NCBI GenBank assembly: GCA_937900695.1
Contig: CALCFD010000051.1
Coordinates: 1,953-65,952, forward strand
DNA from: an uncultured Eubacterium sp.
GTDB taxonomy: Bacteria; Bacillota; Clostridia; Peptostreptococcales; Anaerovoracaceae
Reading direction: 5' to 3'
DNA: 64,000 nt
Shown: positions 25,903-26,457 of the stretch, one piece after another
How positions within the stretch are numbered: position 1 is the stretch's first letter
Layout: each line of letters opens with the position of its first letter
Program-made: the position numbers and the translations under genes
Notes under the pieces: model-generated
The model's database searches: none
What the model saw: only the letters and a program-made list of their open reading frames with translations
Told to the model about the DNA's origin: nothing

Positions 25903-26457
25903 GGTGGAGTGGTAGAGTGGTTTAATACAGCGGTCTTGAGTATCTAAACTAATACTGTAAAAAAAATGAATTTTAATACTCGTGTTACAGGTGAATTAAC
26001 CGAATTAAAATGTCAAATATATTGTTTAGAGCATGGTTTTACTGTATCTAAACCAATTATTGATAATGCAAGATATGATATGATTTTAGAGCATCAAGGG
26101 AAGTTTTATAAAATATAGATAAAAACATCTCGTTGGATGAGCGAAGAACATGAAGGCATTATTTTTAACTGTAAATCTCAACATAGTGTTTCTGGAGGTA
26201 ATAAAATAATGAAATATTCTCCAGACGAAATTGATTTTTTTATGACTGAGTTTGAAGGATAGTTTTATTTAATTCCTTGTGATAAACAAAGAAGCGAAAT
26301 AAAACTTCGTTTCTTACCAACAAAAAATCATCAAGATAATAGAGCTATGTTTGCAAAAGATTATCTATTTGAGGAGGTTATTAAACAGTATTAAGTAAAG
26401 TACTCAAAACCGCCGGCCCGCAAGGGCCCGCAGGTTCGAATCCTGCCTCCATCGCCA
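25903..26457 (+). tRNA. Split class II tRNA gene interrupted in or next to the anticodon arm by an ~0.46-kb insertion (probable group I intron) carrying a PD-(D/E)xK-type endonuclease gene
   Basis: 5' part ggtggag-tg-gtagagtggtttaatac-a-gcggt-ctt. 3' part ..caaa-accgc-cggcccgcaagggcccg (variable hairpin)-gcagg-ttcgaat-cctgc-ctccatc-g-cca. Acceptor and anticodon stems are complementary across the insertion. Confidence 0.5.
25966..26394 (+). CDS. Intron-encoded PD-(D/E)xK-like endonuclease (candidate homing endonuclease), TAG-containing
   Basis: Motif YDMILEHQGKFYKI-Q-IKTS reads as D..E.K. 142 aa. Architecture parallels the PD-(D/E)xK enzyme in the Synechocystis tRNA-fMet intron. Confidence 0.5.

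Follow-up and report, generated by a model that had tools for sequence, protein, structure and literature searches.

A Phage tRNA-Ser(UGA) Gene Is Split by an Endonuclease-Encoding Insertion Whose Ends Are Predicted to Pair with the Anticodon

The Interrupted tRNA-Ser(UGA) Gene

The window analyzed here is a 64,000-nucleotide (nt) stretch of DNA assigned to an uncultured Eubacterium sp. (contig CALCFD010000051.1 of assembly GCA_937900695.1, positions 1,953 to 65,952 of the forward strand). It is AT-rich and phage-like, and all of its genes lie on the plus strand. A tRNA-Ser(UGA) gene split by an endonuclease-encoding insertion occupies positions 25903-26457. This gene was missed by ARAGORN under default settings; with introns allowed, the program returned one call with the exact ends and an insertion of 467 nt. 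The insertion contains an open reading frame (ORF), and its ends are predicted to form two helices, A and B, the first of which includes the anticodon. The parts of the locus are listed below; related loci and contigs are designated by L numbers.

25903-25939, plus strand: 5′ exon of tRNA-Ser(UGA), tRNA positions 1-36 (ARAGORN with introns; the uninterrupted alleles of L106, L110, and L113 begin with the same 37 nt)
25936-25943, plus strand: helix A, 5′ strand, formed by U33, the anticodon U34 G35 A36, and GUAU, with which the insertion begins; pairs with 26400-26407
25940-26406, plus strand: insertion of 467 nt consisting of a 26-nt leader, the ORF, and a 12-nt trailer; present or absent between contigs
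25948-25957, plus strand: helix B, 5′ strand, located in the ORF leader (sequence ACUAAUACUG); pairs with 26386-26396
25966-26394, plus strand: ORF of 142 codons plus TAA, encoding a PD-(D/E)XK homing endonuclease of the I-Ssp6803I family (PF11645, PHROG 5018, PDB 2OST, 174 homologues)
26386-26396, plus strand: helix B, 3′ strand, overlapping the last codons (Gln-Tyr), TAA, and the first two trailer bases
26400-26407, plus strand: helix A, 3′ strand, formed by the last insertion bases GUAC-UCA, of which UCA complements the anticodon, and by A37 of the 3′ exon
26407-26457, plus strand: 3′ exon of tRNA-Ser(UGA) (ARAGORN on the spliced sequence; intronless allele)

The 5′ exon comprises the acceptor strand GGTGGAG, a 3-bp D stem, the anticodon stem strand GCGGT, and the loop bases CTTGA (C32, U33, and the anticodon UGA). 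The 3′ exon contributes A37 and A38, ACCGC, a variable arm (GGCCC-GCAA-GGGCC), a T arm (GCAGG-TTCGAAT-CCTGC), CTCCATC, G73, and an encoded CCA. Both the spliced sequence and a natural intronless allele were called tRNA-Ser(tga) of 88 nt, with the long variable arm, 3-bp D stem, and G73 of class II tRNAs. A preliminary description of this locus had proposed a split class II tRNA, and this was confirmed by an uninterrupted gene in the same phage lineage whose sequence is exactly that of exon 1 joined to exon 2; the split is thus not a chance resemblance.

Because the uninterrupted allele reads CTTGAAA in its anticodon loop, the anticodon is UGA, for serine. Of the two anticodons left open by the preliminary description, UGA was therefore retained and UCA discarded. 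In pattern scans, 23 viral contigs contained an identical anticodon arm with UGA, in each case in a class II tRNA-Ser gene, and the UCA version was encountered once, in an unrelated class I tRNA. A UCA suppressor tRNA was ruled out by the intronless allele together with these scans. The insertion junction itself is ambiguous here by one A and can be read as 35/36 or 36/37; we preferred 36/37 by analogy with relatives of the element, such as the one in Enterococcus phage EFP01, where the junction is unambiguous. Standard tRNA scans miss or mislabel such genes, and the label assigned by ARAGORN in this case is SeC(UCA), which in a recoded phage might be mistaken for an opal suppressor.

An I-Ssp6803I-Family Endonuclease Read through Two TAG Codons

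The ORF is open solely if the TAG codons at 26116-26118 and 26260-26262 are read through, as Gln. The 142-amino-acid ORF noted in the preliminary description did prove to be a full-length family member, but the translation given there had read the two in-frame TAGs as Q without saying so. Several observations justify this reading. Among the single stops that join long same-frame ORFs on the coding strand, TAG was the commonest (15, compared to 4 for TGA); 84 in-frame TAGs are spread across 46 long ORFs of the window; the first TAG of the endonuclease ORF (26116-26118) corresponds to Gln51, which is invariant in 32 homologues (alignment A1); and the window encodes a matching suppressor:

26916-26990, plus strand: amber suppressor tRNA(CUA) (ARAGORN; Rfam tRNA, 59 bits)

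The same-frame stop count showed no sign of in-frame TGA enrichment or TGA recoding on the coding strand of the window. The tRNA(CUA) gene sits 460 nt downstream of the split tRNA gene, and its product is needed for translating the endonuclease ORF through its two TAG codons. The positions of in-frame TAGs differ between the endonuclease ORFs of the related loci. The endonuclease gene is adapted to the phage code in which TAG specifies Gln, and active enzyme would be made only when TAG suppression is on, the catalytic-motif residue Gln51 being itself encoded by TAG.

With TAG translated as Q, the product matched Pfam PF11645 with E = 2.6e-26 (92.7 bits against a cutoff of 26.1) over profile positions 2-137 of 138. 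The sole PDB enzyme matched was I-Ssp6803I (2OST), with E = 1.6e-6 when a single sequence was the query and 2.6e-12 when a profile was used. An AlphaFold model of an 88%-identical homologue (P0002; pLDDT 91) also gave 2OST as its best PDB match (TM 0.77, E = 8e-9), EcoRV and Hjc resolvases ranked after it, and no tRNA-splicing endonuclease (EndA) appeared among the fold-search matches of this model. The presence of a PD-(D/E)XK endonuclease gene in the insertion, as first proposed, was thus corroborated, and comparison with PD-(D/E)xK, Hjc, and I-Ssp6803I placed the product, over its full length, inside the I-Ssp6803I family. The D..E.K motif initially assigned to it did not hold: the catalytic motif is D38...Q51-x-K53, invariant in 32 homologues and aligning to SYD...KVQVK of 2OST.

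Near the end of the ORF (26370-26378), and at the same spot in most related loci, conserved F-E-E-V codons are almost always written TTTGAGGAGGT, with a Shine-Dalgarno-like GGAGG. As the genome is AT-rich, GAA would have been the expected codon, and the use of TTTGAGGAGGT hints at selection at the nucleotide level.

A Conserved Hairpin Predicted between the Insertion Ends and the Anticodon

The junction pattern GGTCTTGA|NNN...N'N'N'TCA|AAACC was found in every locus that carries a close endonuclease homologue (45-88% identical). In helix A, the last approximately seven bases of the insertion pair with U34-G35-A36 and with the first insertion bases, while A37 pairs with U33. A small internal loop separates helix A from helix B, in which the ORF leader pairs with the final ORF codons and the stop codon.

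These pairings were evaluated in an alignment of 22 distinct sequences (alignment A2; 19 pairs, 418 cells). Standard pairs occupied 94% of the 418 cells, compared to 32-47% when the partners were slid by 1-3 columns, and 14 of the 19 pairs showed changes on both sides. The three pairs of helix A past the anticodon (A2 11-68, 12-67, and 13-66) vary between AU and GC, among AU, UA, and CG, and among UA, CG, and AU, respectively, with zero broken cells, and compensatory changes were observed in all six aligned pairs of helix B. The covariation score was 0.616, versus 0.179 in shuffled alignments, none of which (0/500) reached 0.616. The minimum free energy fold of the full 555-nt precursor kept the cloverleaf together with helices A and B (z = -4.6). 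This comparative evidence shows that the anticodon stem of the predicted transcript extends into an irregular hairpin, about 23-25 bp long, that holds the entire ORF in its loop. The putative hairpin includes exon bases, is maintained by compensatory substitutions, and is tuned to the anticodon of each host tRNA.

Recurrence of the Design in and outside tRNA Genes

Insertions with related endonucleases were found in three other tRNA species:

tRNA-Ser(GCU), L066, L067, and L069: insertion of 447-463 nt at site 36/37, last three bases AGC
tRNA-Ile(UAU), L022 and L023: insertion of 451-474 nt at site 36/37, last three bases AUA
tRNA-Asn(GUU), L100 (Enterococcus phage EFP01): insertion of 463 nt at site 36/37, last three bases AGC, with one G.U pair

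In these cases, 8-11 contiguous bp run outward from the pair 33:37. The junctions of these distant relatives were set by hand; helix B mimics a junction in automated searches. The last three bases of the insertion are able to pair with the anticodon in all four tRNA species and thereby to extend the anticodon stem, as is seen in the protein-spliced tRNA introns of archaea and eukaryotes, and the sequences show that the predicted design recurs with related endonucleases in these four species.

The EFP01 insertion could be located without ambiguity, since the alignment with phage iF6 accounts for 36 + 37 = 73 shared bases and places it between positions 36 and 37. The insert is present in only one of 31 Schiekvirus genomes, EFP01 itself; tRNA-Asn is intact in 29 others, with flanks 92-99% identical to those of EFP01 (97-99% in 26 of them).

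In silico removal at 36/37 yielded a canonical tRNA-Ser(UGA) in 22 of 23 loci, from tRNA bodies that are otherwise barely alignable. The element thus appears to recognize little beyond the anticodon stem-loop and to move between unrelated phage tRNAs. Two loci, L007 and L008, encode an identical endonuclease, and their anticodon stems differ by two compensatory pairs. The relatives were found by alignment-based searches, whereas IMG/VR searches that used the exact 3′ exon or the single protein as query did not return any.

In five loci, L053-L056 (~960-1420) and L045 (~960-1440), the cassette and its hairpin lie outside any tRNA, directly upstream of an intact tRNA-Ser(UGA). The hairpin is kept there, and a compensatory change (G35U/C-to-A) has occurred at the pair that once involved the anticodon. 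The intact tRNA-Ser of L045 has an unusual C33 (loop CCTGAAA). Related endonucleases are also free-standing between tRNA genes in Kuttervirus and in T5-like phages.

Presence and Absence of the Insertion in Near-Identical Genomes

The gene next to the split tRNA (26503-26829) encodes a protein that is identical in 402 blocks of the assembly collection, in contigs of up to 148 kb. The same 467-nt insertion was present in about half of the 24 contigs that we read (L105 and ten alike, and L112), while an uninterrupted 88-nt gene with near-identical flanks was present in L106-L111, L113, and L114; in L106, L110, and L113, this gene is exactly exon 1 plus exon 2. In total, about 12 contigs of the lineage had the insert and about 10 lacked it. 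Contigs with and without it can be closely alike, with as few as 17 differences over 900 downstream flanking positions. The element is polymorphic in a widespread, ~148-kb gut phage of Firmicutes type. Both in this lineage and in Schiekvirus, the insert is present or absent at one precise site in near-identical genomes, which is the pattern of homing-type mobility.

In five insert-free alleles (L107, L108, L109, L111, and L114), single-nucleotide polymorphisms cluster just 3′ of the site, namely C40T in the anticodon stem and a change of GGCCC to GGTCC or GGTTC in the variable arm. These polymorphisms may represent endonuclease-resistant targets or scars of co-conversion. Immediately upstream of the tRNA lies the following feature:

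25878-25897, plus strand: terminator-like hairpin with a trailing T run; the tRNA 5′ end follows after 3-5 nt

Its T run has 6 residues in the insert-bearing alleles and 4-5 in the insert-free alleles.

Possible Fate of the Interrupted Transcript

We favor the view, with a probability of roughly 45%, that protein-catalyzed excision and ligation restore tRNA-Ser(UGA). The broader proposition, that phages of bacteria possess protein-dependent tRNA splicing in which mobile, ribozyme-free introns at 36/37 are handled by an RNase and by phage repair enzymes or a host ligase, is put forward a little more tentatively. The preference for a protein-catalyzed route stems from the enzymes encoded in the window. 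Genes for an RNA ligase, an AAA_33 kinase, and three metallophosphoesterases lie 8-16 kb downstream of the split tRNA; these genes and some of their neighbors are as follows:

33836-34627: RlaP-like nucleotidyltransferase
34791-35615: further metallophosphoesterase
38063-39343, plus strand: RNA ligase PF09414, ~42% identical to annotated Bacillus phage RNA ligases; candidate exon-sealing enzyme, its link to the split tRNA being conjectural
40199-40912, plus strand: metallophosphoesterase, conjectural candidate for RNA end-healing
40961-41494, plus strand: AAA_33 P-loop kinase, likewise a conjectural candidate for RNA end-healing
41575-42168, plus strand: second metallophosphoesterase of the 40199-42168 group, with the same conjectural role
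44606-45934: PIN-PhoH fusion protein

In the splicing scheme that we propose, the hairpin would set both junctions at fixed positions of one helix, 3 bp apart and with a 3′ stagger, and a structure-specific endoribonuclease of the host or the phage (of the RNase III, Mini-III, M5, or another type) would cut both strands. The tRNA halves would stay together through the 12 bp of the acceptor and anticodon stems, and would be healed and sealed by the phage kinase/phosphoesterase/RNA ligase module or by host RtcB. The outcome would be a restored tRNA-Ser(UGA) and the release of a stem-closed endonuclease mRNA. Until the suppressor tRNA is active, the in-frame TAGs would hold back both endonuclease synthesis and the entry of ribosomes into helix B. 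At the DNA level, the endonuclease most likely cuts the near-palindromic anticodon stem-loop of an empty allele, after which repair would copy the cassette in (homing). I-Ssp6803I leaves 3-nt 3′ overhangs around the anticodon; if the enzyme described here does the same, its top-strand cut would coincide with site 36/37. The endonuclease might itself take part in the RNA step, as the RNA helix copies the left half and the center of the DNA target with the same cut geometry.

The composition of the tRNA array was also counted in favor of splicing. According to ARAGORN, the array comprises approximately 31 genes and extends over 9.5-28 kb of the window. It holds Ser(GCU) and Ser(AGA) and no other Ser(UGA) gene, and TCA and TCG codons are used by the phage.

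Several points weigh against excision. The removal of the insertion from RNA is inferred throughout, and intact exons are not a proof of function, as homing elements persist by invading intact targets. Phage tRNAs are often dispensable. Classical RNase III leaves a 2-nt stagger, unlike the 3 bp predicted here, and the window ligase is of the nick-sealing PF09414 type and not of the T4 Rnl1 anticodon-loop type. No homologue of this ligase was found in Enterococcus phages at E ≤ 1e-5, so that EFP01 would need another ligase, and no candidate for a splicing endonuclease was identified. Finally, the hairpin is kept in the five cassettes that lie outside tRNAs, which argues that it benefits the cassette and is not necessarily there to repair the tRNA.

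The strongest competing explanation, which we consider somewhat less probable than splicing, is a selfish knockout, in which the cassette disrupts a dispensable phage tRNA gene and never leaves the RNA. The hairpin would then serve the endonuclease gene only, for example by releasing its mRNA from the tRNA-array transcript, by acting as a stabilizing stem, or by controlling translation. The five cassettes that retain their hairpin beside an intact tRNA-Ser(UGA) are in line with this explanation and weigh against splicing. The free-standing relatives in Kuttervirus and T5-like phages also support a knockout, as does the presence of the insert in a single Schiekvirus genome out of 31, expected of a costly or neutral parasite. 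The identical endonucleases of L007 and L008, with their two compensatory anticodon-stem differences, point to recent transfer rather than long residence. However, the last three insertion bases match the anticodon of each host (UCA, AGC, AUA, and AGC with a G.U pair) and the helix spans exon bases 33-37, whereas a purely intron-internal stem would do equally well for mRNA stability. A knockout is also difficult to reconcile with an insert frequency of about 50% in a widespread phage lineage, with the lack of a second Ser(UGA) gene in the tRNA array of that lineage, and with the interruption of three of the 31 tRNA genes of the window (ARAGORN, introns allowed). We also considered that the inverted ends act as DNA, being recognized in that form or extruded as a cruciform cut by an Hjc-like enzyme, but this would explain the anticodon-specific matching no better than the RNA helix does.

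Self-splicing by an unrecognized RNA catalyst, which could be a tiny hairpin or internal-loop ribozyme, a ribozyme within the coding sequence, or a core supplied in trans, is improbable. The succession of helix, internal loop, and helix does recall small ribozymes, and the Rfam negatives are weak, as illustrated by a control insertion in the tRNA-Leu(UAA) gene of L001 (2924-3692). This insertion of 769 nt, with an HNH endonuclease gene, lies at 34/35, the classical site of group I introns, is preceded by U, and ends in G, so that outwardly it looks like a group I intron; it does not occur in sister contig L002 (2891-2973), and Rfam made no group I call on it, even at E ≤ 10. On the other hand, the internal loop and the junction bases differ between subfamilies (A|G, A|A, and U|U), the protein sequence varies along the entire ORF, leaving no long invariant RNA stretch, and no small-ribozyme model matched in 40 loci.

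Slightly less plausible still is an archaeal-type bulge-helix-bulge (BHB) intron, or the use of unligated working tRNA halves, as in Nanoarchaeum. The anticodon-intron pairing and the ORF looped out by a long stem do resemble archaeal introns that bear homing endonuclease genes (HEGs), and the halves could stay paired through the 12 bp of the acceptor and anticodon stems. Nevertheless, there are no two 3-nt bulges around a 4-bp helix, the junctions lying instead inside a continuous helix of 8-11 bp. In addition, the fold of the endonuclease matches I-Ssp6803I, EcoRV, and Hjc and not EndA, no EndA-like protein was detected among the 30 window ORFs scanned, and decoding would probably suffer from a nick next to the anticodon. 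Alternative pairings were tried by hand, and none of them gave two 3-nt bulges around 4 bp.

A classical group I intron with a homing endonuclease, as in Synechocystis tRNA-fMet with I-Ssp6803I, was the context suggested in the preliminary description, and we now regard it as very improbable. The endonuclease family and the kind of host site, a tRNA anticodon loop, are the same (PMC13011429), and bacterial tRNA introns have been described as self-splicing, belonging to group I and very rarely to group II (PMC13011429). However, a conserved group I catalytic core (P3-P9) takes at least about 180 nt of structured RNA. The non-coding part of the insertion amounts to 38 nt (a 26-nt leader and a 12-nt trailer), and in the tRNAs of 4,934 bacterial genomes no group I intron smaller than 184 nt was found (PMC13011429). 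Among 20 related loci with a cleanly parsed ORF, the leader measures 24-31 nt, the trailer 10-12 nt, and the non-coding total 36-42 nt, and the insertion is 455-478 nt long over 21 loci of the same architecture. The Synechocystis tRNA-fMet intron is 655 nt long, with a 150-amino-acid ORF and ~200 nt outside of it (PMC1995217), and the PF11645-bearing tRNA-fMet introns are located at 33/34 (PMC13011429).

The junction bases also argue against a group I intron. The 5′ exon ends in ...UUGA (or ...UUG) and the insertion in ...CUCA (or ...CUC), so that A stands in place of the U (which forms a U.G pair in P1) and of the terminal G of the group I splice signature, and the 5′ exon pairs with the 3′ end of the insertion instead of with an internal guide near the insertion 5′ end. 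A search with the Rfam Intron_gpI model at E ≤ 10 did not give any match in 25500-27000, which covers 25945-26405, or in 16200-17400. The Rfam scan of the whole window at gathering threshold and the scans of 40 related loci likewise gave no group I match. As Rfam also misses the L001 control insertion, these negatives carry little weight, and the rejection of a group I intron is based on length and junction bases.

Finally, a mature tRNA with a UCA anticodon that reads UGA, as an opal suppressor or in a Sec-like manner, is hardly credible: the default ARAGORN parse and a weak tRNA-Sec match (24.7 bits, under the 47-bit threshold) would support it, but the CTTGAAA loop of the uninterrupted allele, the pattern-scan counts given above, and the lack of in-frame TGA enrichment stand against it, and the GCU, UAU, and GUU relatives make sense solely with an anticodon on the 5′ side.

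If the tRNAs are restored, the loci described here would reveal an undescribed, enzyme-driven route of tRNA splicing in bacteria and their phages, and would give a biological role to the RNA ligase/kinase/phosphoesterase modules that are common in large phages. Archaeal and eukaryal tRNA splicing would then have a counterpart in the bacterial world. Without such restoration, the element would be a homing endonuclease without an intron, a hairpin-wrapped parasite of tRNA genes. Enterococcus phage EFP01 and its intronless relatives offer a cultured test system.

Other Interrupted tRNAs and Neighboring Features

A second split tRNA of the window, tRNA-Met(CAU) at 16326-17282, contains an 880-nt insertion (ARAGORN site 33/34) that encodes a GIY-YIG endonuclease with in-frame TAGs. 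This insertion has no Rfam group I match and no terminal G, and its ends do not form the helix of the Ser element. A third tRNA, at 20314-20431 (Rfam, 49 bits; Lys-CUU according to ARAGORN), has a 41-nt insert without an ORF, and its cloverleaf could not be parsed convincingly. The 41-nt element, GGGTCTTGACAAAGACC...CAGCAATCG, recurs in a different, Tyr-like tRNA in L040 (808-933).

In related contigs, tRNA-Thr(UGU) of L035 (1336-1489) and tRNA-His(GUG) of L060 (630-781) bear inserts of 78-80 nt after position 36. These inserts resemble tRNA-like minihelices with a terminal CCA, similar to those reported in Lak phages, and could be released by RNase P and 3′-end processing. Taken together, the two other interrupted tRNAs of the window, neither with a recognizable ribozyme, and the CCA-ending inserts of the related contigs suggest that interrupted tRNAs are routinely tolerated in these phages, or that these phages have a general processing capacity.

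The tRNA array also includes a phage-encoded tmRNA (17500-17830; Rfam RF00023, 69.9 bits). A perfect sigma-70 consensus promoter (TTGACA-17-TATAAT, with TG) is located at 26461-26489 and begins 4 nt past the CCA of the split tRNA. The tRNA region of another viral contig, L032 (2147-2296), contains a partial OLE RNA match of 91 bits (model positions 438-593). The gene cluster at 28878-45934 additionally encodes a DUF2828/DUF7788 protein (28878-30383), an SPFH/flotillin protein, and an 809-amino-acid protein with major-vault-protein shoulder and repeat domains (30786-33215). The content of this cluster is suggestive of RNA repair or ribonucleoprotein biology. Weak matches to YrlA, a Y RNA-like family, were observed in related loci.

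Comparison with Known Systems

Some archaeal BHB introns, which are spliced by proteins, carry LAGLIDADG homing endonuclease genes, an example being the rRNA intron that encodes I-DmoI. Like these introns, the Ser element is mobile and ribozyme-free, its ORF is looped out by a stem formed by its ends, and exon-intron pairing defines its junctions; the analogy extends to the way of working, through an endonuclease and a ligase, in so far as the Ser element is spliced as proposed. It differs from them in having no BHB motif, in its endonuclease family, and in its host, a phage of Firmicutes type, and to our knowledge no EndA has been described in bacteriophages of this type. By analogy, the Ser element would work most like the archaeal protein-spliced introns with HEGs, yet it is built without the BHB motif that defines them.

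Lak megaphages contain 'enigmatic' tRNA introns for which a mechanism was not given (Devoto et al. 2019, PMC6784885). The Lak cases and the elements described here are both anticodon-loop interruptions in TAG-recoded gut phages, without an Rfam class and present or absent between genomes. Those of Lak phages are, in contrast, short or tRNA-like, and neither an endonuclease gene nor a conserved anticodon-pairing hairpin was reported for them (PMC6784885). In surveys of crAss-like phages, introns were inferred from endonuclease domains (PMC7886860). Our literature search did not find any description of ribozyme-free endonuclease insertions in phage tRNAs.

A further likeness is to free-standing phage HEGs and 'genes in pieces', such as the F-Tfl enzymes of T5-like phages and the nrdA gene of Aeh1, which is split by mobE. 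In these systems, too, an endonuclease gene without an intron lies among or inside host genes, and distant PF11645 relatives of the present endonuclease are found in this form in Kuttervirus and Pectobacterium phage My1. Unlike them, the gene described here is situated inside a tRNA at a fixed nucleotide and is enclosed by a covarying hairpin in which exon bases take part.

The closest known system with regard to the enzyme is I-Ssp6803I and the Synechocystis tRNA-fMet intron (PF11645; 2OST). The two endonucleases share family, fold, and the D...Q-x-K motif, and both elements reside in a tRNA anticodon loop, where a near-palindromic stem-loop DNA suits a symmetric enzyme, with the presence/absence polymorphism expected of homing. 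The cyanobacterial intron, however, is a self-splicing group I intron of 655 nt at 33/34 with a ribozyme of ~200 nt, whereas the Ser element measures 467 nt, is located at 36/37, has 38 non-coding nt, shows neither the U/G signature nor a ribozyme, and has ends that are predicted to form an anticodon-pairing hairpin. The endonuclease is thus a new member of a known family, in an element whose ribozyme-free build, site, and anticodon-pairing hairpin differ from those of the type case.

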